A stretch of 64,000 nt of DNA from an uncultured Bacteriovoracaceae bacterium (GTDB taxonomy: Bacteria > Bdellovibrionota > Bacteriovoracia > Bacteriovoracales > Bacteriovoracaceae). Made by a program: the position numbers and the translations under genes. Shown here piece by piece: positions 2,740 to 58,641 of this stretch. Each line of letters starts with the position of its first letter. The first letter of the stretch is position 1. The stretch covers positions 97,408 to 161,407 of the forward strand of contig CALFYV010000090.1 in NCBI GenBank assembly GCA_937952395.1, in the 5' to 3' direction. The notes under the pieces were generated by a model. It saw only the letters and a program-made list of their open reading frames with translations, was not told where the DNA came from and made no database searches.

Positions 2740-3629
2740 AAGATAAAATTAAAATAATTAAAGAGGATTTTGTTGAATGGAATATCAACCCCTCAATGAA
2801 ATGTTTAAAAATAAATGATAGAATTTATGATAAAAATATCATAGTCTCTCCCTGTGCTGCTGAACATTGGATTAGCACTGATTTATTTAAATTTAGATTA
2901 TATTGCCAAAAAAAACAAATACACGTTACTGGTGTTTGTCCTATTAATCAAATACCACTATTCAGTCTTTTCTCAGATGATATAGCCATCGTCGAAGACA
3001 ATCCCTCTTGGTATGAATACAAACACGCTACCACCAATGGTAGTTCTGTAAAAAAGATATCTGACGATCATGTCGATATAGAAAACGGTAACTTTAGAAC
3101 TGTCTTCTCTTCGGAAATATCAGACGATGAGGTAATAGAAAACTATAAACAAAAAACAGTTTGTATTTTAAAATCTGCTTATGATCTTTTTAGAAAAATC
3201 AAACACGAACTTTCTTCTGGAATAATTGTTATAGAATGTAAACAAGAATTCAAATATGCATTAAAGAGATGTTTGTCCAATGAAGATTTGCCGATTTCTG
3301 GGTTTGATTATTCTTTCCAAAAAGACTTGCTCGATAAAGTAGGCAAAGAAAACTACATGTCAACTCAAATATTGGCATCTAATTTTCTTAATTGGCAATA
3401 TATTTGTTATGGTGGGGCATCTAATCTTATGTGTGTGCTACCTGTCAAATATCTCGTCTTAAGAGACCCAACTCTTAACAACAGTGTAATTAAGATCGTT
3501 CAAGGATTTATGAAAGCCAAAGGATATGAAAAAATTCCATTTTTTAACGGTATCACCAATCCAGGAAAGTTGATTGGTGATTTCAAAATCCTAAAAAATT
3601 GGGATAGGCCAGAAATTATAGAATGTTAA
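2736..3629 (+). CDS. Hypothetical protein
   Basis: Long ORF, ATGA-coupled to the upstream helicase. No motif recognised. Confidence 0.6.
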   Translation: MKDKIKIIKEDFVEWNINPSMKCLKINDRIYDKNIIVSPCAAEHWISTDLFKFRLYCQKKQIHVTGVCPINQIPLFSLFSDDIAIVEDNPSWYEYKHATTNGSSVKKISDDHVDIENGNFRTVFSSEISDDEVIENYKQKTVCILKSAYDLFRKIKHELSSGIIVIECKQEFKYALKRCLSNEDLPISGFDYSFQKDLLDKVGKENYMSTQILASNFLNWQYICYGGASNLMCVLPVKYLVLRDPTLNNSVIKIVQGFMKAKGYEKIPFFNGITNPGKLIGDFKILKNWDRPEIIEC

Positions 3630-4279
3630 TCGCCTTCCCATTGATCTTTAGGTTTGGGCGACCAAGTTTTATCCACAAGTCGTTTCCAATATTCTTCTGA
3701 ACTTTCTCCCGGCTTGGGCACATTTTTTCGTTTAGGTTGATTTAACTTAGGAAGATCATCATGATATTGTTTTGCTGCTAATTTCTTCCAATAGTCTGGT
3801 GCTTGTTTTGCATCAAAATTATGACTATGTGTAAATTGATACGGACCAGTTAGATCAAAATAATTGATAGCATATCTTAACAAATCATCAATATTTTTAA
3901 ATACAGATGTTCCAACCAAATCCTTCTTTCTTCTTCTTCTTTCGGGAGAGGCATCTTTATTGAAAAAATTAAGACTAGGGGCATCCCAACTTTCAATTAC
4001 TTCGTCTGGTATTTGGACATATGCGTAACCATTCCACCATCGTTCATGGTAAGAACCGCCTTCCCCTTCGTCTATAAAATAAACTTTAAGTCCTTCTAAA
4101 TACGGCTCGTGTTGATGTGTAATATTAATTTCAATTAAAGGAGATATTCTTGGATCACGAGCAGGAACCTCATCGCCTCCACCCCAACCATAAGAGCCAG
4201 AAGAATCTCCACGGATTTCAAGAAGTTTAAATGCAGAAGAATATTCGTTCTCCACAAATTGACGAAAACTCAAATTCAT
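3626..4279 (-). CDS. Hypothetical protein with N-terminal FRQFVE leader
   Basis: 217-aa ORF coupled to its upstream gene. N-terminus is MNLSFRQFVENE (leader family, see findings). Confidence 0.6.
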   Translation of the reverse strand: MNLSFRQFVENEYSSAFKLLEIRGDSSGSYGWGGGDEVPARDPRISPLIEINITHQHEPYLEGLKVYFIDEGEGGSYHERWWNGYAYVQIPDEVIESWDAPSLNFFNKDASPERRRRKKDLVGTSVFKNIDDLLRYAINYFDLTGPYQFTHSHNFDAKQAPDYWKKLAAKQYHDDLPKLNQPKRKNVPKPGESSEEYWKRLVDKTWSPKPKDQWEGD

Positions 4280-5055
4280 CGTCCTCCAGCATCTAAAATA
4301 TCTTTAGTTTTTAAATTATGTTGCCACCTTGCCATCATTTTCTTAATGGAATCTAATGGAACACCATGAGTATTTTTGTCGGTCAAATATTGTGCAAAAT
4401 CATCTAATTTTTGACGATTTACATATTTATCTCCAAAAAGTTCTCTGTGTGCTTTCCAATGTGGTGAAGTCGGTTCTTGAACACGAATTTCATATCCTGC
4501 CTCTTTAGCATAACGAGCATAAGCGGCAGGCTCGCCAGCGGTGGTATTGGTATTATCTACAATTAAAGGGGTGACTCCTTGATCGACCGCCAATTTGAAC
4601 CGAGTTAAATTATCACCATGTGCTTTTCTTAATTTAGAACCATGCCAATTTGTTCTATATTCAACTGATTCTAATACATCCACCATTTGCTGTGCAATGT
4701 GTAAGGCTTCGTGATACTTGTTTTTATCGGACAATTCTTTGAATTGTAAAAAGATATCTTGATTATCAGCTTTAGGACGACTCCATTTAGCACCATACCA
4801 CATCTCTTTAATTTCTTCACATAATTGCCAAGCGTCATCTAAAGACAAAGAATCTATATTTTTTGATTTCAATTTATTGGCAATTGGATGGAATAGAGAA
4901 TCTGTAGAGAAAACGTGACCTTCAGCATTGCCACCATATTGTTGTAAAAGCTCACGAGTTGTGTAACTTTTACCTGTTCCTGGCAGTCCTCTCATGATAA
5001 ACACAATTTTTTTGTTCATTTCTTGTGTTTCCATATATGTACTAAATTTTTTCAT
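4276..5055 (-). CDS. P-loop kinase (AAA_33 / polynucleotide-kinase-like) with N-terminal leader
   Basis: Walker A GLPGTGKS and an IVDNTNT motif typical of PNK-like kinases. A 12-aa extension (MKKFSTYMETQE) precedes a second Met. Confidence 0.65.
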   Translation of the reverse strand: MKKFSTYMETQEMNKKIVFIMRGLPGTGKSYTTRELLQQYGGNAEGHVFSTDSLFHPIANKLKSKNIDSLSLDDAWQLCEEIKEMWYGAKWSRPKADNQDIFLQFKELSDKNKYHEALHIAQQMVDVLESVEYRTNWHGSKLRKAHGDNLTRFKLAVDQGVTPLIVDNTNTTAGEPAAYARYAKEAGYEIRVQEPTSPHWKAHRELFGDKYVNRQKLDDFAQYLTDKNTHGVPLDSIKKMMARWQHNLKTKDILDAGGR

Positions 5056-5363
5056 GTTTCATTACTAATCGAAGCTAAAGGTGGTTCTTGAAGTTGTGAA
5101 TCACTATCTGCTAGTAAATCAATTAGATCATGCACGGTGCCAGTTCGGTTTTTAATGGTTTGAATAGTCATGTCATCTGATGTTGATATCAAACCACGAT
5201 GAATCAAATCTGTCAATACGTCGTGTCCAATTGAGCTTAAAGATAGCGATAAAACAGCTTGATCATCATCGAGATTAAGCTTGTCTTTCAAGAAATTGAG
5301 AATGGTCCCTTTAATACCTTCTCGTTTGGCTTCTATGTTTTCTAACCATAATTTGAAATTCAT
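5052..5363 (-). CDS. Hypothetical protein with N-terminal FKLWLE leader
   Basis: 103-aa ORF. N-terminus is MNFKLWLENIEAK. Confidence 0.55.
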   Translation of the reverse strand: MNFKLWLENIEAKREGIKGTILNFLKDKLNLDDDQAVLSLSLSSIGHDVLTDLIHRGLISTSDDMTIQTIKNRTGTVHDLIDLLADSDSQLQEPPLASISNET

Positions 5364-5392
5364 AATAAATTATTTATGATTAGACACCAAAA

Positions 5393-6250
5393 TTACGCTA
5401 CGCCAAAAGAGTGTAAAAACAAAGATTGTCTTACTGGGACGCTATTTTTTACCTGTTTCCAATAACATGCTCGGGGATCAGAGTCTACTGTCGCTGGTAA
5501 TTCTGGGCCTCTGGGGAGGGGATGTAATATAATGGCGTCTTCTTTTAAAAGATTTGGGTTTAAAGGCTCAACAGAAGTGTTACAAACTGTTTCTGTTCTG
5601 CGTTCTAATTGAACTCTAGTCATATAGACAACATCAGCCTGACTTAAATCCGGGTTCTCACTTAAATCATACTCTGAAACTGGAATGTTGTAAATTTGTG
5701 CCATTTTTTTCAAAGAATTGATCGTTCGGGCATACTTTAAATCACCTACAATTGCTAAATTCAAACCATCCAAAGTCTTTTTTTCTTTCCAAATGGTATA
5801 AAAGTCAATAACAGCCTGACTTGGGTGTTCTCCGCTGCCATCGCCGGCATTTATAATTGGACAAGATGCTACCTCAGCAGCTTTTAAAGCCGAATCATTC
5901 TCTGGATGACGGAAGACTATCACATCTACTATTTCAGATACTGCTCTAACTGTATCAAGGTAGTTTTCTCCTTTTTTACAAGAAGAATTATCAAAAGCAT
6001 TTTCTACACTAACGACATGACCGCCAAGTTTAGAAAAGGCTGTTTCAAAAGAAAGTCTGGTCCTTGTGGACGGCTCATAAAAAAGACTAGCCATTGTATG
6101 GCCATACATTATGTCATTTTGTTCAACAAAAAATTGATCTTTGCCCGGAGGAAATAACTTCCAGTCATTTTTTTGTAAATTCCAAGCAGAAATAAAGATA
6201 TTATCTAATTGAATTTTAGAGAACTGATCGATAGAAATTATATTTTTCAT
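5393..6250 (-). CDS. pyrB: Aspartate carbamoyltransferase catalytic chain
   Basis: STRTR carbamoyl-phosphate motif, HPSQ and HPLPR motifs. Start moved to the internal ATG at 6250 (MKNIISIDQF), because the track's longer start runs into the divergent gene. Confidence 0.85.
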   Translation of the reverse strand: MKNIISIDQFSKIQLDNIFISAWNLQKNDWKLFPPGKDQFFVEQNDIMYGHTMASLFYEPSTRTRLSFETAFSKLGGHVVSVENAFDNSSCKKGENYLDTVRAVSEIVDVIVFRHPENDSALKAAEVASCPIINAGDGSGEHPSQAVIDFYTIWKEKKTLDGLNLAIVGDLKYARTINSLKKMAQIYNIPVSEYDLSENPDLSQADVVYMTRVQLERRTETVCNTSVEPLNPNLLKEDAIILHPLPRGPELPATVDSDPRACYWKQVKNSVPVRQSLFLHSFGVA

Positions 6251-6297
6251 AGTGATAAATAATAATACAACTTGATTCGAAAAGCAATACATAAAAT

Positions 6298-7095
6298 ATG
6301 AGTTACAAAACATTCAAAGAATGGTTGATTTCTGAGGGTAAGGATATCTTTGGTTTTGAACGACATCGCCAAGAAGAGGAAATTGATCGTCAAAAAAGAT
6401 TAAGCTCCCTTAAACAGCTTAACAGTGAACTTTTAATAAAAGAACTATGGCGGCCAGTTGGCTTAAAAAGACCTTCTTCTAATTTCAGTGATGAAATTAC
6501 TTGGGGACAAGTCAATTTAGGAGAAGCTATTCGTCTAGATATCAGCCCTTTTGGTTCACTTAAAATTATAACCAGAAGGATTGTAAATGATTTAGAAGGA
6601 AATAAAACTTGGATTTGTAAAGACGCAATACCATTGCCAGATGGACATTATGATGGAGAAGAAACTGTTTTAGCAATGGAGGTTTTTGATAAAGTAAATG
6701 AAATTAATAAAAGCCCCATCGATTCTCCAAAAAAAGACTATAATCTAGAACATTTAGCTTTAAAATTAGCAGGTAAAATAAAATTAGAGCGACCCGTAAA
6801 GATCATGATTTTTGATAGAATAAAAAAATTAAATGAAAATCATTATATCGTGGCTATGAACTTCAGCGGGCATGGATTAGAAGCACCAACACAAAGACGA
6901 ATGGAACAATTCCATATACATCTATTTTTCGACCCAAGTCGAGGATTGGTAAGAAGTTACGGCACAGGAATTGAATCGCCAACAAAGGTTCATAAATGGG
7001 AAGCACAAGTATCTGAATTTGACGAACACTTTGCTCCAACTCAATCAACAGAAGAAATCATTACCAATTTACTGAACATTCTTCGAACTTATTGA
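6298..7095 (+). CDS. Hypothetical protein with N-terminal FKEWL leader
   Basis: 265-aa ORF. N-terminus is MSYKTFKEWLISE. Confidence 0.6.
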   Translation: MSYKTFKEWLISEGKDIFGFERHRQEEEIDRQKRLSSLKQLNSELLIKELWRPVGLKRPSSNFSDEITWGQVNLGEAIRLDISPFGSLKIITRRIVNDLEGNKTWICKDAIPLPDGHYDGEETVLAMEVFDKVNEINKSPIDSPKKDYNLEHLALKLAGKIKLERPVKIMIFDRIKKLNENHYIVAMNFSGHGLEAPTQRRMEQFHIHLFFDPSRGLVRSYGTGIESPTKVHKWEAQVSEFDEHFAPTQSTEEIITNLLNILRTY

Positions 7096-15522: not shown

Positions 15523-15696
15523 ATGTTTAGTCTAGATGTTAAATTTGAGAACAATAATATTACATTAATTTAAAAAAACAATGAAGGCAATAAAACAGAA
15601 ATATCTTTTGAAAGAGAATATTCGCATTATTTAAGAGACTCATTGATAGAAATTGTTAAGAAAATTGATTTCTATAATGACTCTCGGTTTCACTAA
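15523..15696 (+). pseudogene. Small ORF interrupted by an in-frame TAA
   Basis: ATG at 15523 gives MFSLDVKFENNNITLI, then TAA (15571-15573). The same frame continues protein-like for 40 codons (KNNEGNKTEISFEREYSHYLRDSLIEIVKKIDFYNDSRFH) with no internal start. Confidence 0.3.
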
Positions 15697-15724
15697 CTAT
15701 TATATACATTTTATAGGAGGAAAT

Positions 15725-16045
15725 ATGGCTAATTATTGGTTAAGTAAAAACAAAATTGTCAACACCCCAGAGGCAACAGAGAATTTGTATGAAATTTTTT
15801 GGGCTGCTGCTAGTGGCAACAACGGAGCAATTGAAATTGGATGGCCTGTAGAAGAGTCCGCAGACCCAGTTTATATGAGTGTTTCATATGATGTGTGGTA
15901 TGAAGAACTTTGTAAGTATGCTGGAACTTATGGATGGGAAGAGTATGTTAGAAGTGATAAGGAAGCTTGGAGATTGTCTTATGAAGACAACATGACTCCA
16001 GAAGAAGCTTTTCTTGAAGATGCTTCTTATTGGGAAGAAGGTTAA
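15725..16045 (+). CDS. Hypothetical protein, MxNYWL family
   Basis: AGGAGG upstream. N-terminus is MANYWLSKNK. Confidence 0.6.
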   Translation: MANYWLSKNKIVNTPEATENLYEIFWAAASGNNGAIEIGWPVEESADPVYMSVSYDVWYEELCKYAGTYGWEEYVRSDKEAWRLSYEDNMTPEEAFLEDASYWEEG

Positions 16046-16046
16046 A

Positions 16047-16250
16047 ATGAGTAATTATTGGCTTGACAAAATTAATAAAGATTTCTGGATTCCGGTTAAA
16101 CCAAGCTCGCCTGCATCGGTTCGAGTTTATGCCCAAAATCTAGGAGAGATCGATGATTTAGTTGACTTTAAAAACAAACTATATACACCATTCAAATTCC
16201 CAGATAAATTATATACGCCGAATCCAACAAGTAAAAATAATTATAAATAA
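16047..16250 (+). CDS. Hypothetical protein, MSNYWL family
   Basis: N-terminus is MSNYWLDKINK. ATG lies 1 nt after the upstream stop. Confidence 0.55.
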   Translation: MSNYWLDKINKDFWIPVKPSSPASVRVYAQNLGEIDDLVDFKNKLYTPFKFPDKLYTPNPTSKNNYK

Positions 16251-18425: not shown

Positions 18426-19379
18426 ATGAGTTTGGATATTCAAGGATTAATGGAAGACGCTGAGCGTCTGAGTAAGGAAAATAATTCAAGTGACTTTCTA
18501 GAGAACTTTGTTAAATTTCCTTCTGATGGCGGTGTTGTGGTTGTGAGATTGCTCGGGCCTGCTAGCCCTGGAATGTTTGACAACAAAACAAACCCCTTCT
18601 ATCAAAGCACTCGTATTCACCGAGTCAATGGAAAAAGCCTTCATTGTTTGAAGACTTTAAATAACAACAAATGGGAAGGAGATTGTCCTATTTGTCTTTA
18701 TTACAATTGGCTTTGGAAAGAAAGCGAGACAAAAGACCCTGCCGAGGCCGAAAAGCTGCAAAATCAGGCGAGAGCAATTAAGCCTATTGAGCGTTATTAC
18801 TTTAATTGTATTGTCCGCAAAGAAGTCGATGAAAAGACAAATGAAGTCCGTGAAAATGTGGGGCCAAAGATTTTAAGTATCGGCAAGACACTTCTAAAGA
18901 AAATTATCACCGGAATTGTTGGTGATAAAGAAATGGAAGAGCCTGCTTTGGGCGATGTCACCGATTTTAAAACTGGACGGGACTTCAAGATTATCAAGAC
19001 TATCCGTCAATCTCATGGAAGATCATTCCCAAATTATGATCAATCGAAGTTCTTAGAGCCAAGCCCGGTTGATCCTGATTTAGCCAAGAAGTGTATGGAG
19101 AATCTTCATAATCTAGTTACGCTTCGTCATCCACCTGAGACTGAAGAAGCTAAATTAGAATTGAAGAAGCATTTGGGTTTGATCCCCGATACAGAGGGAA
19201 CATCGTTTGATCCTACTGAGTTTCAAACAGATACCAGCACAAGTGTGAGTGTTGAAAAAGATGTTCCATCTGAAAAAACCGAAGCTCCTGTTTCGGAGTC
19301 TAAGGTTGAATCTTCAACTGCTGTTGAGGAGCTTGAAGATGATGATGATTTCATCAACAAGTTGCGTGAGATAGGTTAA
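18426..19379 (+). CDS. gp32-like single-stranded DNA-binding protein
   Basis: Cys/His cluster (HCLKT...CPICLYYNW) and an acidic C-terminal tail (EELEDDDDF), the same layout as T4 gp32. Confidence 0.65.
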   Translation: MSLDIQGLMEDAERLSKENNSSDFLENFVKFPSDGGVVVVRLLGPASPGMFDNKTNPFYQSTRIHRVNGKSLHCLKTLNNNKWEGDCPICLYYNWLWKESETKDPAEAEKLQNQARAIKPIERYYFNCIVRKEVDEKTNEVRENVGPKILSIGKTLLKKIITGIVGDKEMEEPALGDVTDFKTGRDFKIIKTIRQSHGRSFPNYDQSKFLEPSPVDPDLAKKCMENLHNLVTLRHPPETEEAKLELKKHLGLIPDTEGTSFDPTEFQTDTSTSVSVEKDVPSEKTEAPVSESKVESSTAVEELEDDDDFINKLREIG

Positions 19380-26671: not shown

Positions 26672-27095
26672 AAATCGAGTTTTTGTTCCCAAAAGTTGGG
26701 GATATGAGGATTGGATTGTCAACAGCCCATTATATTGTGGGAAACTGCTTTTTATAAAAAAAGAAAAACACACTAGTCTCCATTATCATAAATTAAAGAC
26801 TGAAACGCTTTATTTACACTCTGGCAGATTATGTGTTACTTACTATGATAACCCTCAATTTGATAGGGATTTTTTGTTTTGGGATCAATATTTGTTTCCT
26901 TGGGGCGAAAATCCTCCACGACAATATTTTGGATTAATTCAAATAATTATGGAACCTGGAGATTCTTTCCATGTGCCACAAGGTAGACGGCATACGTTGT
27001 TTGGTTTGCTAGATTGTCATTTATTTGAATTTTCCACTGAACATTTCGATGAAGACTCTTATAGAGTTTTGAAAGGGGTAACTACAAGTGTCTAA
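26661..27095 (+). CDS. Cupin-fold protein
   Basis: WGYEDWIV...HTSLHYHKLKTETLYL...GDSFHVPQGRRH matches the cupin two-motif pattern. Confidence 0.6.
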   Translation: MMNENRVFVPKSWGYEDWIVNSPLYCGKLLFIKKEKHTSLHYHKLKTETLYLHSGRLCVTYYDNPQFDRDFLFWDQYLFPWGENPPRQYFGLIQIIMEPGDSFHVPQGRRHTLFGLLDCHLFEFSTEHFDEDSYRVLKGVTTSV

Positions 27096-27264
27096 CTATT
27101 GGTTAAAAAAAGAAGAAAAATTTGAAAGAAAATTTCATTTTACATTGGATAAAATTAGAGAGCAAAGATTTGACTTGACAGCCCGATGTATGGCCTCAAT
27201 TGAAACACATCATTATCAGATGACATCTGCAAAGATGTTGCGTGAAATATTAAAAAGTATATAG
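27088..27264 (+). CDS. 58-aa protein, SNYWL family (below the ORF-track cutoff, GTG start)
   Basis: Hand translation gives VSNYWLKKEEKFERKFHF...LREILKSI. Overlaps the upstream stop. Confidence 0.45.
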   Translation: MSNYWLKKEEKFERKFHFTLDKIREQRFDLTARCMASIETHHYQMTSAKMLREILKSI

Positions 27265-27807: not shown

Positions 27808-27816
27808 GGAATGCTA

Positions 27817-28092
27817 ATGTCTAATTATTGGTTGAGAGACCCTGAGCATAATTTATTGTTAAAAAAAGATTGGGAAATGGAGTTTTCTAAACTTCATAAT
27901 GATTTTTATGCATTTGTGATAGATTCTTTGTTTGAACATGAGAAGGATTTTGTAGAGAAAGCAATTACTTTCTTAGAGGAAAAAACAGGAAATTCTGCTT
28001 GGTACACTTATAGTTGGCGGCGTGAGAAAAACTCCCCAAGAACTCAGCAATTTAAGTTTGGGGCTAATTTATTAGATAAAGAATGGGGCTAA
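27817..28092 (+). CDS. Hypothetical protein, MSNYWL family, C-terminus truncated by a 25-nt duplication
   Basis: AAGGA lies 6 nt upstream of the ATG at 27817. N-terminus is MSNYWLRDPE. The stop lies inside the second repeat copy. Confidence 0.55.
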   Translation: MSNYWLRDPEHNLLLKKDWEMEFSKLHNDFYAFVIDSLFEHEKDFVEKAITFLEEKTGNSAWYTYSWRREKNSPRTQQFKFGANLLDKEWG

Positions 28093-28170: not shown

Positions 28171-28467
28171 ATGTCTAATCATTGGTTGAAGCAAAAAGAA
28201 GTTTCTCTTAGTCAAATTGCTAATGTTTTTAGTGATTATAAAAACAAAACCACAGCAGGTTCTGTAGAACAGTATCGTGCTATTCTTGAAACGAAATTAC
28301 AATTGTATCTCCAATCTTTGGTGGCTTCTAATCAAATTAAACGTTTTCATTTCTGCACTACTGCCTGCAAAGGAGGCATAATTTTTGATATAGTAATAAA
28401 CAATAATTATAAAGATATTTTATCATCATATGTTTGGGATCATGATTTTGATAAAGAGGAGTATTAA
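28171..28467 (+). CDS. Hypothetical protein, MSNHWL variant of the family
   Basis: N-terminus is MSNHWLKQKE. Confidence 0.55.
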   Translation: MSNHWLKQKEVSLSQIANVFSDYKNKTTAGSVEQYRAILETKLQLYLQSLVASNQIKRFHFCTTACKGGIIFDIVINNNYKDILSSYVWDHDFDKEEY

Positions 28468-31621: not shown

Positions 31622-32056
31622 ATGGAACCATTATATTTTAAGCTTTTTTTAGAACTTGAAGAACGTCAGCCTAATTACCTAGATGCTCTCAAAGATGAAT
31701 TGGGCATAAATCCTGAGGCTTTAGAAAAAAGTCCGGGCTGGGTTGCCAATTTGAGTCTTGGCAAGTTTTCTTATAATGGAATGCTTTACAAAATTGAGAA
31801 TTTGGTTTATAAAAATGGCAACATTAGTGGAGCGATGGTTAAACCGATGAATGTAGGAGGCATCAATACTTTGAAGTCTTATATAAGCAAAGGTGATCAA
31901 CAAATAAAACTGCCGAACAACAAACTGCCTAATAGGCCGTTTTTTGTTCGTTTGGAAGATTTAAATAAAATCTTGACACAAGGTATGTCGCCCGGCATGG
32001 GAGGTGTTGGAGGCGGTGAAATGAATACAATGTTGCCAGGATCGGTGCCACTATGA
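31622..32056 (+). CDS. Hypothetical protein with N-terminal YFKLFLE leader
   Basis: N-terminus is MEPLYFKLFLELEE. Gly/Met-rich C-terminus. Confidence 0.55.
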   Translation: MEPLYFKLFLELEERQPNYLDALKDELGINPEALEKSPGWVANLSLGKFSYNGMLYKIENLVYKNGNISGAMVKPMNVGGINTLKSYISKGDQQIKLPNNKLPNRPFFVRLEDLNKILTQGMSPGMGGVGGGEMNTMLPGSVPL

Positions 32057-32217
32057 TATTAGATTTTAAAAATTGGTTAATGCAAGAAACTGGAACATCT
32101 ACAGCATGTGTGGCTCATTTTGCTCGTCCTGTTATGGGCATTGTCAGAAGAAATGCAGCACAATTAGAACCAATTGGATTTGAAAAGAAGCGAAAAAAGA
32201 AAAAGAAGAAAAAATAG
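32054..32217 (+). CDS. 54-aa basic protein with FKNWL leader (below the ORF-track cutoff)
   Basis: Hand translation gives MILDFKNWLMQETGTSTACVAHFARPVMGIVRRNAAQLEPIGFEKKRKKKKKKK. ATGA-coupled. Confidence 0.45.
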
Positions 32218-40429: not shown

Positions 40430-40696
40430 ATGGACACATTAAACTTTAAATCTTGGCTTGAAAATATTGATGCTGAAAAAGCCGTAGCTGCTGACCCCAC
40501 TTTATCTGCGGCAGCCAAAGGTGCTGAAATGGCAGCTAGAACTGCTGTTGAAAAAGGCCAAGACCCTGTGAAAGCGGCTCAAATGGCTGTATTAGACGCT
40601 GGCGTGCCTTCTAACAAGCTTGGACAAGTGTTGCCTAGGGCCACCACGTTGAATAAAATGAAAGCTAAAATGAAGTCCAAGATGAAGAAAAAATGA
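40430..40696 (+). CDS. Small protein with FKSWLE leader and basic tail
   Basis: Begins MDTLNFKSWLENID and ends KMKAKMKSKMKKK. Confidence 0.55.
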   Translation: MDTLNFKSWLENIDAEKAVAADPTLSAAAKGAEMAARTAVEKGQDPVKAAQMAVLDAGVPSNKLGQVLPRATTLNKMKAKMKSKMKKK

Positions 40697-40938
40697 TAGA
40701 GTTACACTTCAAACAGTTTTTAGAAACATTAACAGGCCGAGCCGCCCAGAAAATTTGGAAGCCAGAAACTCCAGTAATTAAAGACAATCCTAAACTTAGT
40801 AGGGCAGATCAAAAAAAGCGGCTTAAGGGTGTTCATTTGAATCAGGGATTTAGACCTCAATTTCCTGCTCCTTTTAAAGGTCTTACTGCTGATAAATTTG
40901 GGATTAAAGTCCGAAAAATTCCTAATCCTAAGAAATAA
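40693..40938 (+). CDS. Small basic protein with FKQFLE leader
   Basis: Begins MIELHFKQFLETL. Lys/Arg/Pro-rich. Confidence 0.5.
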   Translation: MIELHFKQFLETLTGRAAQKIWKPETPVIKDNPKLSRADQKKRLKGVHLNQGFRPQFPAPFKGLTADKFGIKVRKIPNPKK

Positions 40939-42359: not shown

Positions 42360-44486
42360 ATGCTGAGCAAACCTCCCAGGCAAAGGAATAAAATAATGCA
42401 AGAAGTGACCAAAGAGCTTAATTGGCTATCCGAACAGTTTGATGCTTCTGAGTTTAAGACTCTTCATGAAGAGATGTCTTTCTCTGACTATGTAGATTCT
42501 GTTATCAGAAACCCCAAGCTGGCTCGTTCTGCCTATCAGCGTATCTATGATATGATCATGGATGAGGGGACCACTACCTTTAAGCGTTATCGTAAGACTT
42601 ATACAAATTATAAATTCTTCGATGACGTTGATGTGCCAATTTTCGGATTAGAAGATACGTTGAATGAGTTGGTTCGTTTTATTCGTGGTGCCGCTGGCGG
42701 GTATGGCACTGAGAAGAGAATTCTTTTACTTCACGGTCCTGTTGGTTCTGCTAAATCAACAATCTGTCGCCTGTTGAAGAGAAAGATGGAAAATTATAGT
42801 CGCACGGATGCTGGGGCTTGGTATACCTACAAATGGGTTAATCTTCCCATTGGGCAAGAAGATGGAATTTATACTCATACTTATGATGAGTGCCCAATGC
42901 ACGACGATCCTTTGAAGTTAATTCCTATGAATATTCGTAGGAAACTCTTCACTCGCCTTAACGAAATTCATATGGAGCAAACTCCGGAGAAAGATCGTCA
43001 GGCTCAATATACTCTCAAGTCTGAAGGTGAACTAAATCCTCGCTGCAAGAAATTCATGCAGGAATTGCTGTTGAAGTATGACGGCGATTGGAAGAAGGTT
43101 GTAGAAAACCACATCACTGTGGTTCGTAAAGTTTATTCCGAAGCGGATCGCATTGGAATTGCAACTTTTCAGCCCAAGGATGAGAAAAACCAGGATGCCA
43201 CTGAGCTTACTGGCGATATTGATTACAGCAAGCTTCCTCACTTCGGGGCCGACTCTGATCCCCGTGCTTTCAACTTTGATGGTGAATTCTGTGTGGGCAA
43301 TCGTGGCCTAACCGAATTCATCGAAATGTTGAAGCTCAGCAAAGAATTTCTTTATGATTTGCTGGGTGCCTCTCAAGAACGTTCGATCAAGCCGAAAAAG
43401 TTTGCTCAAATTTCGGTAGACGAAGTTCTCATTGGTCACACCAACGGCCCAGAGTATGAGAAACTTAAGAATGACCAGACGATGGAAGCATTGAGGGACC
43501 GCACGGTGAAAATCGATGTTCCTTATTTGCTACGCTGGTCAGACGAAATTCGTGTCCTATCTCAGGATTATGGACAAGATAAGGTGCGTCAACATATTGC
43601 CCCACACACAATTGAAATCGCTGCCCTGTGGGCAGTGTTGACCCGTCTTAAAAATGATAAAGACAATAAATTGTCTTTGGTCGAGAAGGCCAAGCTTTAT
43701 GATGGCAAATATCTCCCAGGATATACTGAAGATACCGTAAAAGAATTACGGGACAAATATCCTGGAGAGGGCATGGACGCTGGTGTCTCGGCTCGTTATG
43801 TGCAAGATAAAATTTCAAATTGCCTTTCTTCGCACTATGATTACATTAACCCCTTTATGGTCTTGAACGAGATTCGTGACGGACTGAAACATTCTTCGTT
43901 GATTACCAACGAAGAAGATAAGGGCAAGTATGTTGAGTGTGTGGATGCGGTAATGAAGGAATTAGATCAAATTCTGAAGACCGAAGTGCAAAAGGCTTTA
44001 GTAGGTGACGAAGATGCCATCAACCGTCTTTGCACTAATTATATTGATAATGTTATCGCATTCATCAATGATTCTAAGGTCATCAATCCTTACACTCAGA
44101 AAGAGCAAGAGCCGGATGAACGCCTAATGCGTTCCATTGAAGAAAAGATTGATATTCCTGAGGTGGGCGTCGATGACTTCCGCCGCAGCATCGCAGCCTT
44201 CATTGGAACCTTGGCCCAAAAAGGTGAGAAGTTCAAGTGGGACAGTAATGTCGAACTAAAAGACGCCTTACAGGCTAAATTGTTCGAGGATACCAAGGAC
44301 CACATTAAACTTTCGGCCCTAAGCACCTCCGGTGCCAGTGTAGTTGAGCCAGACTTGCAAGAAAAAATCGATGCAATTAAGCAGCGTTTGATCAAGCAAT
44401 ATGGCTATAATTCGAAGTCTGCTGAAGATGTTCTAAACTACGTGGGCTCGATTTTCGCCCGAGGTGATGTGGCTGATGATGATTAA
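42360..44486 (+). CDS. prkA: PrkA/YeaG-family AAA+ serine protein kinase
   Basis: LLLHGPVGSAKST P-loop. The length and the conserved blocks (GLTEFIEMLK, HTNGPEYE) fit PrkA. Alternative start at 42396 (MQEV), preceded by AAGGAA. Confidence 0.88.
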   Translation: MLSKPPRQRNKIMQEVTKELNWLSEQFDASEFKTLHEEMSFSDYVDSVIRNPKLARSAYQRIYDMIMDEGTTTFKRYRKTYTNYKFFDDVDVPIFGLEDTLNELVRFIRGAAGGYGTEKRILLLHGPVGSAKSTICRLLKRKMENYSRTDAGAWYTYKWVNLPIGQEDGIYTHTYDECPMHDDPLKLIPMNIRRKLFTRLNEIHMEQTPEKDRQAQYTLKSEGELNPRCKKFMQELLLKYDGDWKKVVENHITVVRKVYSEADRIGIATFQPKDEKNQDATELTGDIDYSKLPHFGADSDPRAFNFDGEFCVGNRGLTEFIEMLKLSKEFLYDLLGASQERSIKPKKFAQISVDEVLIGHTNGPEYEKLKNDQTMEALRDRTVKIDVPYLLRWSDEIRVLSQDYGQDKVRQHIAPHTIEIAALWAVLTRLKNDKDNKLSLVEKAKLYDGKYLPGYTEDTVKELRDKYPGEGMDAGVSARYVQDKISNCLSSHYDYINPFMVLNEIRDGLKHSSLITNEEDKGKYVECVDAVMKELDQILKTEVQKALVGDEDAINRLCTNYIDNVIAFINDSKVINPYTQKEQEPDERLMRSIEEKIDIPEVGVDDFRRSIAAFIGTLAQKGEKFKWDSNVELKDALQAKLFEDTKDHIKLSALSTSGASVVEPDLQEKIDAIKQRLIKQYGYNSKSAEDVLNYVGSIFARGDVADDD

Positions 44487-44518
44487 TTAAATATCTAAAT
44501 TTGCCTGAAAAATAGAGC

Positions 44519-44578
44519 AAACCGCCATATATAACATTGTCGAGAAACACTTTCGGCAGTGGAAATATATGGCGGTTT
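44519..44578 (+). terminator. Long inverted repeat / terminator-like hairpin after prkA
   Basis: 14-bp perfect arms (AAACCGCCATATAT / ATATATGGCGGTTT), 32-nt loop, followed by GTTTTTGG. Confidence 0.55.
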
Positions 44579-44596
44579 GTTTTTGGTAGTGGTAAA

Positions 44597-46195
44597 ATGA
44601 AAATATGCAGCAAGTGTAAATTAGAACTTCCTTTTGATTCATTTTCAAAGCACAGTCGATCTAAAGATGGTCTTTACTATTGTTGTAAGATTTGTAAGGC
44701 AAAGGAAGATCGAGAATATCGAGCAAGGCATCGAGACAAAATTAAAAAGAAGAAACATTTGTATTATGAGCAAAATAAAGATCATATAAAGTGTAAAACA
44801 GTAAGATATCAGAAACACAATCCTGATAAGGTTAAAGCTTATTCTAAAACAGCAAGAGAAAATCTAAAAATAGAAATATTTAATCATTATTGCAATTGCA
44901 ATATTGAATGTAAAAATTGTGGGCAAAATCAATTGCATTTATTGACAGTTGATCATGTTAACGGTGGTGGTTCCCAACATAAGAGAAGGATCAAAAATCT
45001 TTATTCTTGGATTAAACGAAATAATTTTCCAGAAGGCTTTCAGGTTCTTTGTTGGAATTGTCAATTTAGAAAAAAGAATGAAGAGGCCAAGCCTGAAAAC
45101 CCACAGCCCAATCAAATAAAACAAGCAGAGTATGTTAAAAACATTAAAAAAGAAGTTTTATCACACTATGGAACAACATGCTCCTGCGGAGAATCAGATG
45201 ATGTAGTTTTAACCTTAGATCATATAAATGACAACGGAGCAGAGCATAGAAAAAAATTAGGTCGCAGAGGTTTTAATTTTTATCTTTGGTTGAGAAAAAA
45301 CAACTTTCCAAATGATCCGCCATTGCAAGTATTATGTGCTAATTGCCAATATGATAAGCACAATTTAAAACCTCGTTTATTTAACAGCGAAACACACCTC
45401 CCAGAACACAAAGTACATTTAGAAATTGCTTCTTGGTTAGATTCATTTGGTTTAAAGCTTGAAGATAAAACAATTGAGTATTGTGACTTTTTTTGGCACA
45501 CACAAGTTCCTGAAAGGTATCATTATAATAAATACAAAGAATATTTAGAAAACAATGTTCAATTGATCACTATTTTTGAAGATGAATGGAATGATAGACG
45601 TTCGCAATGTGAGTCTCATATTCTTTCTTTGTTTGGGATAAAAGAAAGAACCGTCTTTGCTAGAAAGTGTTCAATAGTTGATTTAAACAAAGTTGAATTT
45701 AACAAGTTTTGCGATGCTTATCATATTCAAGGTTCTAATAGACTGGGTTTAATTTTTTATGGACTGGAATTTAAAGGCGAGTTGTTGGGGGTTATGTCGC
45801 TGGGACGGCACCACCGACAGGTTAAAACTTTAGTATTAGATCGTTTGTGTTTTAAACGAGGCGTGCAAATTCCAGGTGGCGCAAGCAAGCTTTTTAGCAG
45901 ATGTATAGAATGGGCAAAAATAAATAATTATTCTGATATAATTAGCTTTTCTGATAATAGGTGGAGTTTAGGAGGGGTTTATAAAGCTTTAAATTTTCAA
46001 TTAGACAAAGAACTCCCACCAGACTATAGCTATGTAGATTTAAAAAATGGCGGGAAAAGATTATCCAAACAATCTCAGAAAAAGAAAAACACAAATTGTC
46101 CTTCTGGAATGACCGAAAAGGAATGGGCTTTAGAGCGAGGTTTGGTCCGAATTTGGGATTGTGGTAAAAAGAGATGGGTGTATAATATTCATTGA
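44597..46195 (+). CDS. Double-HNH homing-endonuclease-like protein
   Basis: Two HNH modules (TVDHVNGGGSQH...VLCWNCQ and TLDHINDNGAEH...VLCANCQ) after Cys-rich N-terminal repeats. The C-terminal ARKC...YHIQG...GGASKLF domain resembles those fused to freestanding phage endonucleases. Confidence 0.65.
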   Translation: MKICSKCKLELPFDSFSKHSRSKDGLYYCCKICKAKEDREYRARHRDKIKKKKHLYYEQNKDHIKCKTVRYQKHNPDKVKAYSKTARENLKIEIFNHYCNCNIECKNCGQNQLHLLTVDHVNGGGSQHKRRIKNLYSWIKRNNFPEGFQVLCWNCQFRKKNEEAKPENPQPNQIKQAEYVKNIKKEVLSHYGTTCSCGESDDVVLTLDHINDNGAEHRKKLGRRGFNFYLWLRKNNFPNDPPLQVLCANCQYDKHNLKPRLFNSETHLPEHKVHLEIASWLDSFGLKLEDKTIEYCDFFWHTQVPERYHYNKYKEYLENNVQLITIFEDEWNDRRSQCESHILSLFGIKERTVFARKCSIVDLNKVEFNKFCDAYHIQGSNRLGLIFYGLEFKGELLGVMSLGRHHRQVKTLVLDRLCFKRGVQIPGGASKLFSRCIEWAKINNYSDIISFSDNRWSLGGVYKALNFQLDKELPPDYSYVDLKNGGKRLSKQSQKKKNTNCPSGMTEKEWALERGLVRIWDCGKKRWVYNIH

Positions 46196-46211
46196 ATATA
46201 AAGGAGATATT

Positions 46212-46490
46212 ATGTATCCAAAAATTGTAACAAGAGAAGAATTTAATGAGGCTGTCGAAGCACTGTGGACAGAAATTGAATATCAAAATAATTTAGCTCG
46301 TCGTACATCTGATGAAGCCAAGGACGTTCCCGGTTTTGTGGTTTTAGGAAACCGCTATATTAGAAAAATAGAAGATGACTGGGCTGATCAACCGGGTCCA
46401 GTAGTGGAAGATGCCTTGCATGGATTGCGAAAAGTGGCTACCATATTTCTTCGTGGAATGGTTTATTGCGGCGTGAGACCTAGACAGTAA
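46212..46490 (+). CDS. Hypothetical protein
   Basis: AAGGAG lies upstream of the ATG at 46212. 92 aa. Confidence 0.55.
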   Translation: MYPKIVTREEFNEAVEALWTEIEYQNNLARRTSDEAKDVPGFVVLGNRYIRKIEDDWADQPGPVVEDALHGLRKVATIFLRGMVYCGVRPRQ

Positions 46491-46514
46491 ACTCACCCTT
46501 AAAAAGAGAAAAAA

Positions 46515-47783
46515 ATGCCCCGCAGAATTGAAGAAGATCGTCGTGATTTCCGTGACAGGTATTCAGGACGAATTCGTAGTTCGCTTAAAAAATTCATCAA
46601 CAATGGGCGTATTTTTAGAACACGCCCAAATGGCGGTCATGTTCCTATTACAATTCCTAGGATGGATATTCCTCATATTGTTCATGGCAACAATAAAGAT
46701 GGAGTGGGCCGTGGTGGCGGGGAAGATGGAGATATAATCCAAAAAGGCCCTGAGAAAGGCAAAGGTAAAGGCAATAAAGGTGGCGATGGCACTCAAGAGG
46801 GAGTTGAAATCGCTTTGAATTTGGAAGATGTTTTGCAATTTCTACAACAAGAATTGCAACTTCCAAATCTAAAACCCAAACCAAATGAAGTGCTTGAAGA
46901 AGAAGAAATTAAATATACAAGCATTTCTTTGACAGGCCCTGAATCGTTACGTCATAATCGCCGCACCATGTTGCAAGCGTTAAAACGACAAGCGGCTGCC
47001 GGAAATCTTGATAAATTACATTGGATTCCCGGTTTTTCTCAGCCTGTGAAAATGATAACGCCAATCAACACAGATCGTCGTTATCGCCAATATCGTGTTA
47101 TTCAAAAACCTTCTAGTAATGCAGTAATATTCTTTGCTAGAGATGGTTCTGCTTCGATGGATGAATATAAATGCGATATTGTATCTGATATGTCGTGGTG
47201 GATTGACATTTGGATTAGACGGTTCTATGAGCGAGTTGAACGTTGTTATATTTGGCATGATACTTATGCTCAAGAATGTGATGAAAACAAATTTTATACA
47301 TACCGCTATGGTGGTGGTACTAAATGTTCATCAGCATTCAAATTAATTGCCAAACAGTTTGAAAACAGATTTCCGCCCAACAAATGGAATATTTATGTTT
47401 TCTATTTTACTGATGGTGAAAACTGGAATGAAGATAACAACCAATTAATTAAAACTTTACACGAGAAATTCCCTCCAGAGGTTGTTAATTTAGTTGGAAT
47501 TACCCAGGTAATGGCATATGGCTATGAAAACAGTCTTCGTCAACTTGTAATAAACGAGATGGCGGAAGGATCGTTAAAAGGGGCTAACAATATAAAAACT
47601 ACGGCGGTTGGCCCTGAAATGGCTGGTCCTTCTAATAATCAAAGTGTGACTAATTACAATCCTTGGGGCTGGGGACCAGGCCAATTGACCTCAGATGAGC
47701 GAGATGCTCAAATTAAAAGAGCAATTACTGATATTTTAGGAACTAATCAGTCTAAAAAAGCACGAGCACCAGAAGGTATTTAA
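46515..47783 (+). CDS. yeaH: YeaH/YhbH (DUF444) vWA-like protein
   Basis: N-terminal RRIEEDRRDFRD...KF, and a MIDAS-like ARDGSASMD. Typical partner of PrkA. Confidence 0.82.
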   Translation: MPRRIEEDRRDFRDRYSGRIRSSLKKFINNGRIFRTRPNGGHVPITIPRMDIPHIVHGNNKDGVGRGGGEDGDIIQKGPEKGKGKGNKGGDGTQEGVEIALNLEDVLQFLQQELQLPNLKPKPNEVLEEEEIKYTSISLTGPESLRHNRRTMLQALKRQAAAGNLDKLHWIPGFSQPVKMITPINTDRRYRQYRVIQKPSSNAVIFFARDGSASMDEYKCDIVSDMSWWIDIWIRRFYERVERCYIWHDTYAQECDENKFYTYRYGGGTKCSSAFKLIAKQFENRFPPNKWNIYVFYFTDGENWNEDNNQLIKTLHEKFPPEVVNLVGITQVMAYGYENSLRQLVINEMAEGSLKGANNIKTTAVGPEMAGPSNNQSVTNYNPWGWGPGQLTSDERDAQIKRAITDILGTNQSKKARAPEGI

Positions 47784-49382
47784 ATGTCAAATGATTTTCT
47801 GCATGGCAGTTCTTTGTTGCTAGGCGACAATACCGTTCCCGGCGTGCAAATTCCGGAAGAACTTAAGAAGTTAATTCCTGATATTTTCAAAGCCTGTAAG
47901 GATTTCGGTTTGGATTTTTATCCGACTGTTGTTCAAATGTTGGCTTATGATGAAATTAGTGAAATTGCTTCTTATGGTGGTTTTCCGGTTCGTTATCCCC
48001 ATTGGAAATGGGGTATGGAATATGAGGAATTGCAGAAGGGTTATATGTACGGAATGCACCGTATATATGAATTAGTTATCAATACTAATCCATGCTACAT
48101 TTATTGTTTAGATTCCAATGCTCTTGTAGATAATGTTACTGTTATTGCTCATGCTTTAGGACACAATGATTTCTTTAAGAATAATATTTTCTTCTCCCCT
48201 ACCAGTCAAAATATGATGAACCAATTGGCCAATCACGGCACAAGGGTTCGTAAATACATGGCTCGCTGGGGAAGGAGTAGAGTTACAGATTTCATTGATC
48301 ACTGTTTAAGAATTGAAACCCTTATTGATTTCAGCACAGCATGGGAAAAGAGAAAGGTAAAGCAAGTCACGATCAAAGATAGTAGAAAATATCGTCATCC
48401 AAGACGGTTGGAAACAGATCGTGATTACATGGAACCTTACATCAACACTGAAGAGTGGAAAAACAAACAAAAACAAAAAATTGAAAGAAAAGATGCTTTT
48501 GATGAATTAGAGATTTTCAATAATCCCACCAAGAATATTATGGGATTTTTGCGTGATCATGCTCCGCTCAAAGCGTGGCAGTCAGATGTTTTGTCTATGT
48601 TATATCAAGAGGCTTTGTATTTTGCACCTCAAAGATTGACAAAAATGGCCAATGAAGGCTGGGCCAGTTTTGTTGATTACAACATTATGTGCAAATATGC
48701 TCTGTGCGGATTAGGTCAAAAAACTCCTGATTCTGGAATTATTCAATATTCCAAACACAAGATGGGTGTTTTAGGCGGCAAACATTCGACTAATCCATAT
48801 AAATTAGGTTTTTGTTTATTCCAAGATATTGAAGAGCGTTGGAATAAGGGCCGTTTTGGTACAGAATATGAAGAGTGTGATGATTTAGAGAAGAAGAGAA
48901 AATGGGATACAAATGTTGGGTTGGGACAAGAAAAGGTTTTTGAAGTTCGCAAGCATTATAATGATTTAACGATGCTGGCTGAATTCTTTACTCCTGAATT
49001 TTGCAATAAATATGAGTTTTTTAACTGGAAACGCCATCCAAATGGTGATATCATGTTAGAGAATCGCAATTTCAGGGAAATTAAAACTAAATTACTCCGC
49101 AAATATGCGAATGGCGGCCTGCCAGAGATTTTCTTAGTTGATCCAAATCATCGTGGTAAAAGATATATGCTTCTCCAACATCGTTGGGAGGGTCAAACAT
49201 TACTTCCAAAATATGTAGAAGCTGTAATGCAATCATTGTATTTCTTCTGGAACAATGATGTGTATCTTGCCACTAAAGACAAGGATGGAAATGAGATTGT
49301 TTGGGCTGCCTATGGTGTCGAAGATGGGCTTGTAGAATGCATGACACGGGAAAAATACGAAGAGTCAATGAAACGAAAATGA
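47784..49382 (+). CDS. spoVR: SpoVR/YcgB-family protein
   Basis: IAHALGHNDFFKNN and the length (532 aa) fit SpoVR. The start directly abuts the yeaH stop. Confidence 0.88.
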   Translation: MSNDFLHGSSLLLGDNTVPGVQIPEELKKLIPDIFKACKDFGLDFYPTVVQMLAYDEISEIASYGGFPVRYPHWKWGMEYEELQKGYMYGMHRIYELVINTNPCYIYCLDSNALVDNVTVIAHALGHNDFFKNNIFFSPTSQNMMNQLANHGTRVRKYMARWGRSRVTDFIDHCLRIETLIDFSTAWEKRKVKQVTIKDSRKYRHPRRLETDRDYMEPYINTEEWKNKQKQKIERKDAFDELEIFNNPTKNIMGFLRDHAPLKAWQSDVLSMLYQEALYFAPQRLTKMANEGWASFVDYNIMCKYALCGLGQKTPDSGIIQYSKHKMGVLGGKHSTNPYKLGFCLFQDIEERWNKGRFGTEYEECDDLEKKRKWDTNVGLGQEKVFEVRKHYNDLTMLAEFFTPEFCNKYEFFNWKRHPNGDIMLENRNFREIKTKLLRKYANGGLPEIFLVDPNHRGKRYMLLQHRWEGQTLLPKYVEAVMQSLYFFWNNDVYLATKDKDGNEIVWAAYGVEDGLVECMTREKYEESMKRK

Positions 49383-58330: not shown

Positions 58331-58641
58331 AAATAAAAGCAGAATTAGAATCAAATGATCTAAAAGATATTAGAGAAGTGTTAACAACATGGATGGGCAT
58401 ATCCCCTTCAGATGAACAAATTCGTGACTTAATGAAATATGAAAATGATATTCTTATCGATATTGCTAATTGGGGAGCAAATGATACCCCAACTAGAGAA
58501 AAAATAATGAAAGCCGTTGGAGAACGAATCACTAAAATGCGATATCCACGCCATAAAGATTCTCAGAAATATATGGATGAATTTTGGGACATTTTTAATC
58601 AAAAAGCTGTTGCCTCTGGGATAAAGGTGGTTGTATCATGA
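58327..58641 (+). CDS. Hypothetical protein
   Basis: 104-aa coupled ORF between the topoisomerase subunits. Confidence 0.5.
   Translation: MKIKAELESNDLKDIREVLTTWMGISPSDEQIRDLMKYENDILIDIANWGANDTPTREKIMKAVGERITKMRYPRHKDSQKYMDEFWDIFNQKAVASGIKVVVS

Follow-up and report, generated by a model that had tools for sequence, protein, structure and literature searches.

A short N-terminal leader on unrelated megaphage proteins resembles the sequence that targets phage T4 internal proteins to the capsid

The 64,000-nucleotide stretch of DNA analyzed here (positions 97,408 to 161,407 of contig CALFYV010000090.1, hereafter called the window) is densely coding, has a G+C content of about 35% and contains nine open reading frames (ORFs) that begin with variants of a single short peptide. 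This peptide, which we call the leader, is the subject of this work. The window is a replication and nucleotide-metabolism region that encodes helicases, a DnaB-like helicase, a fragment of a family A DNA polymerase, SSB and a UvsX-like recombinase, together with a PHP/PolIII-alpha-like gene, a ClpP homologue and a PrkA-like kinase. From their N-termini only, further genes were assigned as thymidylate synthase, DHFR and gyrase-like. The leader has the form F-x-x-[W/F/Y]-[L/V/M]-(0-2 residues)-E, and in all nine carriers the motif starts within residues 3-6. The carriers are listed below with the isoelectric points (pI) of their bodies and, where these stand out, their scores with a position-specific scoring matrix (PSSM) of the leader.

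3626-4279, minus strand: ORF of 217 residues with leader MNLSFRQFVENE at 4244-4279; the body belongs to no known family and has a pI of 5.9.
4276-5055, minus strand: P-loop kinase (AAA_33, polynucleotide-kinase-like) of 259 residues with leader MKKFSTYMETQE at 5020-5055, immediately behind which come the strand and P-loop of the kinase domain.
5052-5363, minus strand: small acidic ORF of 103 residues, the first gene of a three-gene leader cluster, with leader MNFKLWLENIE at 5331-5363; it has the top PSSM score in the window and the sequence CATAAAT 15 nt upstream.
6298-7095, plus strand: ORF of 265 residues with leader MSYKTFKEWLISE at 6298-6336; the body is predicted to be a folded alpha/beta domain and matched no solved structure.
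31622-32056, plus strand: ORF of 144 residues with leader MEPLYFKLFLELE at 31622-31660.
32053-32217, plus strand: small, very basic ORF of 54 residues (body pI 11.2) with leader MILDFKNWLMQE at 32053-32088.
40430-40696, plus strand: small basic ORF of 88 residues (body pI 10.2) with leader MDTLNFKSWLENID at 40430-40471; it has the second-best PSSM score and the sequence TATATAA 13 nt upstream.
40693-40938, plus strand: small basic ORF of 81 residues (body pI 11.2) with leader MIELHFKQFLE at 40693-40725.
53559-54578, minus strand: large, very acidic ORF of 339 residues (body pI 4.3) with a weak leader, MFKKFTNYVEE, at 54546-54578.

Three of these proteins are small and very basic (54-88 residues, pI 10-11), two are acidic, one is the P-loop kinase and three are of other kinds. 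Pfam and PHROGs gave no family for eight of the nine, the kinase being the exception. The N-termini translate as the original prediction had written them, although its start for the sixth ORF, 32054, was off by one and should read 32053. Upon removal of the first 14 residues, an all-against-all BLASTP comparison of the carrier bodies found nothing better than E = 0.3, in keeping with the earlier description of the bodies as unrelated.

The leader is far more frequent at N-termini than expected. In a crude set of 100 window ORFs, on which all enrichment counts were made, the strict form F[KR].[WF][LV]E opened five ORFs (3626, 5052, 31622, 40430 and 40693) and was found at none of the 18,874 internal positions, the N-terminal expectation being 0.03 (Poisson p = 1e-10). 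The looser form F[KRST].[WFY][LVMI] gave nine N-terminal and five internal matches, with 0.29 expected at N-termini (Poisson p = 3e-11). When either the whole proteins or the first 20 residues alone were shuffled 1000 times, the strict motif never gave more than one match and the looser motif never more than four. The shuffles and the internal counts rule out chance and composition as the cause of the motif, and on the window ORFs the enrichment check proposed with the original prediction, which called for shuffled controls and internal positions, came out in favor of the motif. Each of the nine leaders begins at the first possible start codon past the upstream stop, and hence the N-terminal location is not an artefact of start choice. 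The glutamate is shifted one or two residues later in 6298 and 32053. The weakest leaders are those of 4276 (F-S-T-Y-M-E) and 53559 (F-T-N-Y-V-E), and both are backed by family context. A six-frame scan of the window with the leader PSSM found no additional convincing carriers. Sec, Tat and lipoprotein signal peptides have a positively charged n-region and then an unbroken hydrophobic core of about 10 or more residues, with a twin-Arg or a lipobox Cys where relevant. These features were sought in the nine leaders, which had no hydrophobic core, RR motif or lipobox; lysine, arginine, glutamate or aspartate residues interrupt every leader, and signal peptides of these kinds were rejected.

The closest complete relative, and the nearest entry of the phage collection, is LR756511.1, from an uncultured phage of 595,163 bp that encodes a PrkA-like protein 67% identical to that of the window. 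LR756511 has homologues of 44 of the 100 window ORFs, mostly grouped at about 335-405 kb. A megablast of 6 kb of window DNA against the phage collection gave no match, and only protein searches revealed the relationship. The window proteins are also encoded on a 546,038-bp metagenome contig in ENA (ERZ869936 NODE_6). Given these matches, the window is part of a megaphage genome of about 546 kb. The proteins of 6298-7095 and 4276-5055 also have NCBI entries that are 99-100% identical (DWQ19_11210 and DWQ19_11225) on a contig of 546,492 bp that bears the label 'MAG: Crenarchaeota archaeon'. Hence, the megaphage appears to have been binned as an archaeon in an NCBI metagenome-assembled genome (MAG). 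The NCBI gene call DWQ19_11210 begins at MISEGKD and the leader is thereby lost. This is an annotation problem, in that at least one public gene call of this phage starts downstream and removes the leader. A scan of GTDB genomes gave five other relatives, and the 546-kb contig was not among them.

The whole LR756511 genome (1084 ORFs) was searched de novo for gapped trimers over-represented at N-termini. F..W.E came first, seen 16 times against an expectation of 0.44 (p = 7e-20), and TF..W and K.F..W came next. About 45-50 of the 1084 ORFs carry the leader, as in MKTFNQWLE, MKTFSEWLE, MKTFAEWIVE and MMNFAQWVENE, and the leader proteins include some of 694, 949, 1040 and 1076 residues. A PSSM made from the LR756511 leaders alone ranked window leaders 1st to 4th and 6th among the roughly 19,000 positions of the window proteome, that of 3626-4279 being 4th. 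In 80 IMG/VR loci of related phages the leader pattern was enriched 27-fold at N-termini. Fifty-one megaphage leaders gave the consensus [LKM][TND]-F-[KR]-[EQ]-[WFY]-[LVF]-E-[EN], in which F-x-x-[W/F/Y] forms the invariant core. The first aromatic, phenylalanine, is most often residue 4, which places the second at residue 7, and tryptophan is the most conserved position after the phenylalanine. One LR756511 ORF of 182 residues (544812-545360, minus strand) has GFKEWLEENH about 45 residues into the protein, behind a basic MPFKSKKQ...GGFGG segment. In this case the leader may also be used internally, or the gene may be fused or its start misassigned.

Conservation is at the level of the peptide, as the original prediction held. 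The synonymous codons vary among the window copies (TTT/TTC, AAA/AAG/CGT, TTA/TTG/CTT/GTG and GAA/GAG), and a comparison of the DNA upstream of the nine carriers showed no conserved sequence. These findings bear on the proposal that what is conserved is a translation-initiation enhancer, a recombination site, a promoter-proximal element or some other feature of the mRNA or DNA where the genes begin, with the peptide as a by-product. Points in its favor are the AT-rich codons near the N-terminus and the four cluster-heading carriers that lack an obvious Shine-Dalgarno sequence, three of which have a TATAAAT-like motif no more than 15 nt from the ATG. However, the free codon differences and the lack of a common upstream sequence largely refute a nucleotide-level cause. 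Moreover, the peptide pattern persists in relatives having 33-54% G+C, the leaders are also found on operon genes with overlapping stop and start codons (4276, 3626, 32053 and 40693), and a position as conserved as tryptophan is encoded by TGG. We consider this explanation barely credible. The upstream motif itself, [TC]ATA[AT]A[TA] located 8-15 nt before the ATG in place of a Shine-Dalgarno sequence, precedes 5052-5363, 6298-7095 and 40430-40696 and is similar to the T4 late promoter TATAAATA. A TATAAAT-like motif is present within 30 nt upstream of three of the nine carriers versus four of the 91 other genes. Late or near-leaderless transcripts could be marked in this way, a suggestive observation that is too weak to use.

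The kinase showed that the leader is modular. Among 61 homologues of the 4276-5055 protein, 31 have a clear leader ahead of the P-loop strand (e.g., MEKFDNWLETKM, MKSWQEFLENKM and MNFKQWLETE), 11 have a degenerate extension, 13 have no extension (e.g., MKKIVLMRGLPGTGKST) and six were called from an internal methionine. The existence of homologues with and without the leader bears out the suggestion in the original prediction that the kinase has an appended tag. Other carriers keep the leader in their orthologues. The 6298 protein and its 12 homologues share an MS[YF][KR]TF.EW leader, and in the 12 homologues and the LR756511 orthologue the retained leader is followed by an indel and then by DIFGF. 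The LR756511 homologue of 31622 (25-26% identical) has an in-frame methionine at MTLGFRQFVELE, where homology begins, and we have taken this methionine as the true start of the orthologue. The distant LR756511 homologue of 53559 (25% identity) also opens with a leader, MDLKSFSEFL. Hence, the leader is kept in orthologues while the bodies diverge to 25-30% identity.

AlphaFold2 modeling of the 6298 protein from a 12-sequence alignment (mean predicted local distance difference test score of 83) showed residues 3-12 as a helix and about residues 13-40 as a linker of low confidence, with a confident alpha/beta body behind them. A search of the PDB with this model gave no significant fold match, the best E-value being 0.065.

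If the carriers were diverged paralogues of a single ancestral gene, the shared N-terminus could be the sole recognizable remnant of that gene and have no signal function. Carriers are often adjacent (3626-5363, 31622-32217 and 40430-40938), as tandem duplicates would be, and most bodies belong to no known family. However, the bodies range from 54 to 1076 residues, their pI runs from 4.3 to 11.2, no similarity among them was detected, and one of them is a bona fide P-loop kinase having homologues both with and without the leader. The kinase and the 6298 protein are also predicted to have different folds, and a neutral remnant would not be the best-conserved part of orthologues that are 25-30% identical. 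Common descent of the carriers is therefore very unlikely, though somewhat less so than a nucleotide-level cause.

The closest known parallel is found in phage T4, where the internal proteins (IPs) are packaged by means of a capsid-targeting sequence (CTS). The pre-loaded T4 proteins serve as a first response in anti-defence and takeover: the GmrSD restriction enzyme is blocked by IPI, some hosts require IPIII, and the large enzyme Alt modifies RNA polymerase. In the T4 genome (NC_000866) IPII and IPIII begin MKTYQEFIAEA and IPI begins MKTFKEFTSTTTPVSTITE (MKTFKEF), with aromatics at Y4/F7 in IPII and IPIII and at F4/F7 in IPI. The first 10 residues of IPIII are enough for encapsidation; targeting is governed mainly by residues 4 and 7 and processing by residues 8 and 10, the gp21 protease cleaving after L/I-x-E (PMC9026906). 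As the aromatics of the megaphage leaders fall most often at residues 4 and 7, their invariant positions coincide exactly with the T4 targeting positions, behind which come a hydrophobic residue and a glutamate. The T4 CTS, put forward as the precedent in the original prediction, was a sound choice, the clade consensus matching the T4 IP leaders at the targeting determinants (4 and 7) and, with its glutamate usually one residue earlier, resembling them at the processing determinants (8 and 10).

The likeness extends to other properties. The megaphage signal, of about 10-14 residues, sits at the very N-terminus of unrelated, often small basic proteins. The clade consensus M-K-T-F-x-x-W-L-E resembles both MKTYQEFIAE and MKTFKEF in having aromatics at 4 and 7, a hydrophobic residue at 8 and then a glutamate. 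The T4 IPs are likewise small and very basic, Alt is a precedent for a large packaged and injected enzyme, and CTS-like leaders are known in close T-even relatives (PMC9026906). Thus, the small very basic carriers resemble the T4 IPs and the kinase carrier has Alt as an enzyme precedent. The two systems also differ. The megaphage leader prefers tryptophan as the second aromatic, and its glutamate is usually at position 9, one residue earlier than in T4. There are about 45-50 carriers in the 595-kb relative and nine in the 64-kb window, versus three T4 IPs (gp61.1 being a possible fourth). Moreover, the megaphage cargo includes enzymes and proteins of more than 1000 residues and is known here from sequence alone.

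A T4-type leader would call for a T4-type head, and phmmer searches with T4 proteins detected LR756511 homologues of gp17 (1e-28), gp20 (3e-34), gp23 (1e-35) and gp21 (4e-23) in a single cluster at 523-537 kb. The same searches with T4 gp22, gp67, gp68, Alt, gp18 and gp19 found no homologue in LR756511. The gp21 homologue scored 96 bits against Pfam Peptidase_S77, above threshold, and a second S77 paralogue scored 34 bits. The LR756511 protease has more than 1200 homologues, on contigs of up to 669 kb. Among the matches listed, the phage-collection homologues other than LR756511 were all from cultured phages and were mostly annotated as gp21-type prohead proteases. The protease of the window phage was not among the 120 matches listed. 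However, one IMG/VR relative, a contig of 262 kb, combines an S77 protease of this kind with a PrkA protein 70% identical to that of the window. This contig and the shared gene content (44 of 100 ORFs, mostly in one region) link the head genes to the window genome, which presumably has the same head genes as its relatives.

Head-module loci drawn from GTDB MAGs and IMG/VR have the gene order portal, a protein of 590-690 residues, S77 protease, a helical protein of about 300 residues and major capsid protein. The helical protein was assigned as the scaffold by position only, and the 590-690-residue core protein begins MKRKLISFDAFKKIEE. In about 39 of 41 distinct loci an ORF of 90-143 residues lies beside the gene of the 590-690-residue protein, is divergently transcribed and starts MKTF.QY[LV].[LI]KE (examples are MKTFQQYLNLKELA and MKTFQDYVSLKELA, and MKRFLDYYRFRED in LR756511). 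These head-module leaders end in the canonical L/I-x-E at residues 10-12, a sequence found at residues 8-10 of T4 MKTYQEFIAE. Two further LR756511 leader proteins, of 1076 and about 485 residues, are encoded just past the capsid gene. In T4 the genes encoding the small prohead core proteins gp67 and gp68 lie between portal gene 20 and protease gene 21, and there the relatives have the small leader gene and the 610-residue gene. However, T4 gp67, gp68 and Alt have no sequence similarity to the proteins of the relatives by phmmer and their N-termini lack the F..W pattern. The LR756511 portal ORF (531014-533587, minus strand, 857 residues) has an intein-like insertion (CVAGDT ... VMHNC), and portal ORFs of about 1250 residues in other relatives (L022, L040 and L089) suggest more insertions.

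Taken together, the sequence comparisons make it probable, though well short of certain, that the peptide shared by these N-termini is a capsid-targeting leader of the type found on T4 internal proteins, used on a much larger scale. The leader would form a short amphipathic helix, one face of which presents the two aromatics three positions apart and the next hydrophobic residue. This face would dock the newly made protein onto the scaffold or core of the assembling prohead. Upon closure of the shell around the core, the gp21-type (Peptidase S77) protease would cut after the glutamate at or just past the end of the leader, removing all or part of it. The mature cargo would then remain in the capsid with the DNA and enter the host at infection. 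Docking to the scaffold, cleavage, packaging and ejection are steps that we infer. If the leader is a capsid-targeting signal, then the nine window carriers are part of a packaged and injected protein set. As T4 IPI and IPIII are anti-defence factors (PMC3012670, PMC9391042), several of the orphan carriers could by analogy have such a role.

Several observations weigh against capsid targeting. The phage is uncultured and packaging is argued from sequence comparison, the head module lies outside the window and the S77 protease was seen in relatives only. The implied cargo species are many, 9% of window ORFs and 4-5% of LR756511 ORFs, and include enzymes that could act in the cytoplasm, such as the CCA-adding-type nucleotidyltransferase of LR756511. 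The cleavage site is also imperfect. All nine window leaders end in hydrophobic-x-E (W-L-E, F-V-E, Y-M-E, I-S-E or M-Q-E), and the P3 residue is L, I or M in a minority only. About half of the leaders have the glutamate right after W/F-L and hence an aromatic at P3, whereas T4 has L or I. It is therefore doubtful whether such sites are cut, and some leaders may do their targeting while staying attached to the protein. The resemblance to T4 is also modest by score. The megaphage PSSM ranked IPI only 9th of about 16,000 T4 positions, and IPII and IPIII, which have tyrosine as the first aromatic, fell outside the top 12. The best T4 match was the start of UvsW.1 (MLLEFKQFLYEAS, at about 114.2 kb of NC_000866). 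T4 gp61.1 (gene 61.1, 18966-19130 of NC_000866) begins MKTFKEFIKEDM, a near-perfect CTS ending in I-K-E. Neither UvsW.1 nor gp61.1 is among the internal head proteins named in the T4 literature searched. Given these lookalikes, a leader-like N-terminus is not proof of packaging, and given the rank of IPI and the UvsW.1 match we claim functional resemblance, not homology. As a separate matter, gp61.1 may be a candidate for an unrecognized T4 internal protein.

The same T4 lookalikes can be cited for a different role, in which the leader is a docking helix for a partner other than the capsid, for example a chaperone of the phage or host, a Clp-type protease (the leader being a degron or regulatory tag), a replication compartment or a membrane. 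The carriers would then be cytoplasmic proteins that are co-regulated or co-localized. The window encodes a ClpP homologue (49813-50505), the carriers sit among replication and metabolism genes, enzymes such as the window kinase and the LR756511 nucleotidyltransferase are among them, and an amphipathic helix suits many types of docking. However, such docking leaves unexplained the position-by-position match to the mapped T4 CTS. It also leaves unexplained why the most conserved carrier lies beside the S77 protease in the head cluster and has a leader ending in L/I-x-E, and we know of no Clp N-degron having the leader pattern. We consider a non-capsid partner unlikely, although much less so than either common descent or a nucleotide-level cause.

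Capsid targeting by N-terminal regions is also found in phiKZ, 201phi2-1 and SPN3US, where such regions target ejection and inner-body proteins and a diverged gp21-like protease cuts after glutamate (PMC5694885). These phages resemble the megaphages in having dozens of head proteins involved and a second protease paralogue, as does LR756511 with its second S77 paralogue, but their propeptides are mostly 80-160 residues or longer, with S/A/G-x-E sites and no shared short motif (PMC5694885). A long propeptide of this type was rejected for the window proteins. The window leaders are 11-14 residues long and the kinase domain starts right after its leader, and the 6298 protein as modeled by AlphaFold2 has no structured N-terminal element before the linker other than the helix of residues 3-12. 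Encapsulins provide a further parallel, in that a short modular peptide sends unrelated cargo inside a shell of the HK97 fold. The encapsulin cargo-loading peptides differ from the leader in that they are usually C-terminal, have other sequences and bind the shell protein itself, with no protease step or DNA packaging.

A second N-terminal leader, M-[SKR]-N-[YHF]-W-[LI]-[KDNE]-[KR], opens five small window ORFs having unrelated bodies and was found at no internal position.

15677-16045: second-leader ORF with the probable true start MANYWL.
16020-16250, plus strand: second-leader ORF of 76 residues, beginning MSNYWLDK.
27088-27264: second-leader ORF.
27811-28092: second-leader ORF.
28171-28467: second-leader ORF.

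In LR756511 this pattern occurred at six N-termini versus four internal positions; one example, MKNYWLNRRK, is encoded just downstream of the terminase gene, with a single small ORF in between. In the 80 related loci it occurred at eight N-termini versus four internal positions, a 51-fold enrichment. The second leader may be another address tag. The MSNYWL protein of 16020-16250 aligns with residues 562-618 of the gp20-like LR756511 portal at 47% identity (E = 8e-12) and looks like a free-standing fragment of the portal. A tentative extension of the capsid-targeting proposal, which we put forward with considerable doubt, is that the clade uses short N-terminal tags genome-wide. F-x-x-W-L-E would send dozens of proteins (4-9% of genes, including kinases, RNA-repair-type enzymes and proteins of more than 1000 residues) into the capsid for injection, and M-[SK]-N-[YHF]-W-L-[KDN]-[KR] would serve another destination or step, such as the second S77 paralogue or the portal and terminase. 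As a side observation, the second LR756511 S77 paralogue (242240-243133) has a C-terminal extension to which the 104-residue ORF at 58327-58641 (plus strand) shows weak similarity (24% identity, E = 4e-6).

Other window genes deserve brief mention. The PrkA-like serine kinase gene (42360-44486), which also has counterparts in Thermus phages, is followed by 46515-47783 and 47784-49382, both of which match PHROGs of unknown function; one of the two also matches a PHROG labelled 'sporulation protein'. The genes of 42360-49382 resemble the PrkA/YhbH/SpoVR trio, with an HNH or homing endonuclease gene (44597-46195) between the kinase gene and the other two. Behind the ClpP homologue (49813-50505), which scores 79.6 bits against Pfam CLP_protease, lies an ORF of 231 residues having no Pfam match (region 49813-51197).

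What we propose is a known kind of signal, the textbook CTS of T4, in a new and much expanded setting that has dozens of cargo species, a shifted consensus and a second leader class. In the literature searched, no paper connected huge phages or megaphages with capsid targeting. Metagenomes are the only source of huge phages of 500-600 kb, and for the majority of their genes no function has been assigned. If the leader is a capsid-targeting tag, then sequence alone would show which of their proteins are pre-loaded and act first in the host, and should the two-tag proposal also be true, the injected proteome of uncultured huge phages could be readable from sequence. The leader also provides a second, divergent tag to try for the loading of foreign proteins into capsids. 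If capsid targeting is correct, hundreds of orphan genes of this clade would become a defined set of candidates for counter-defence functions, and the cargo-loading mechanism of T4 would reach far beyond the T-even phages.

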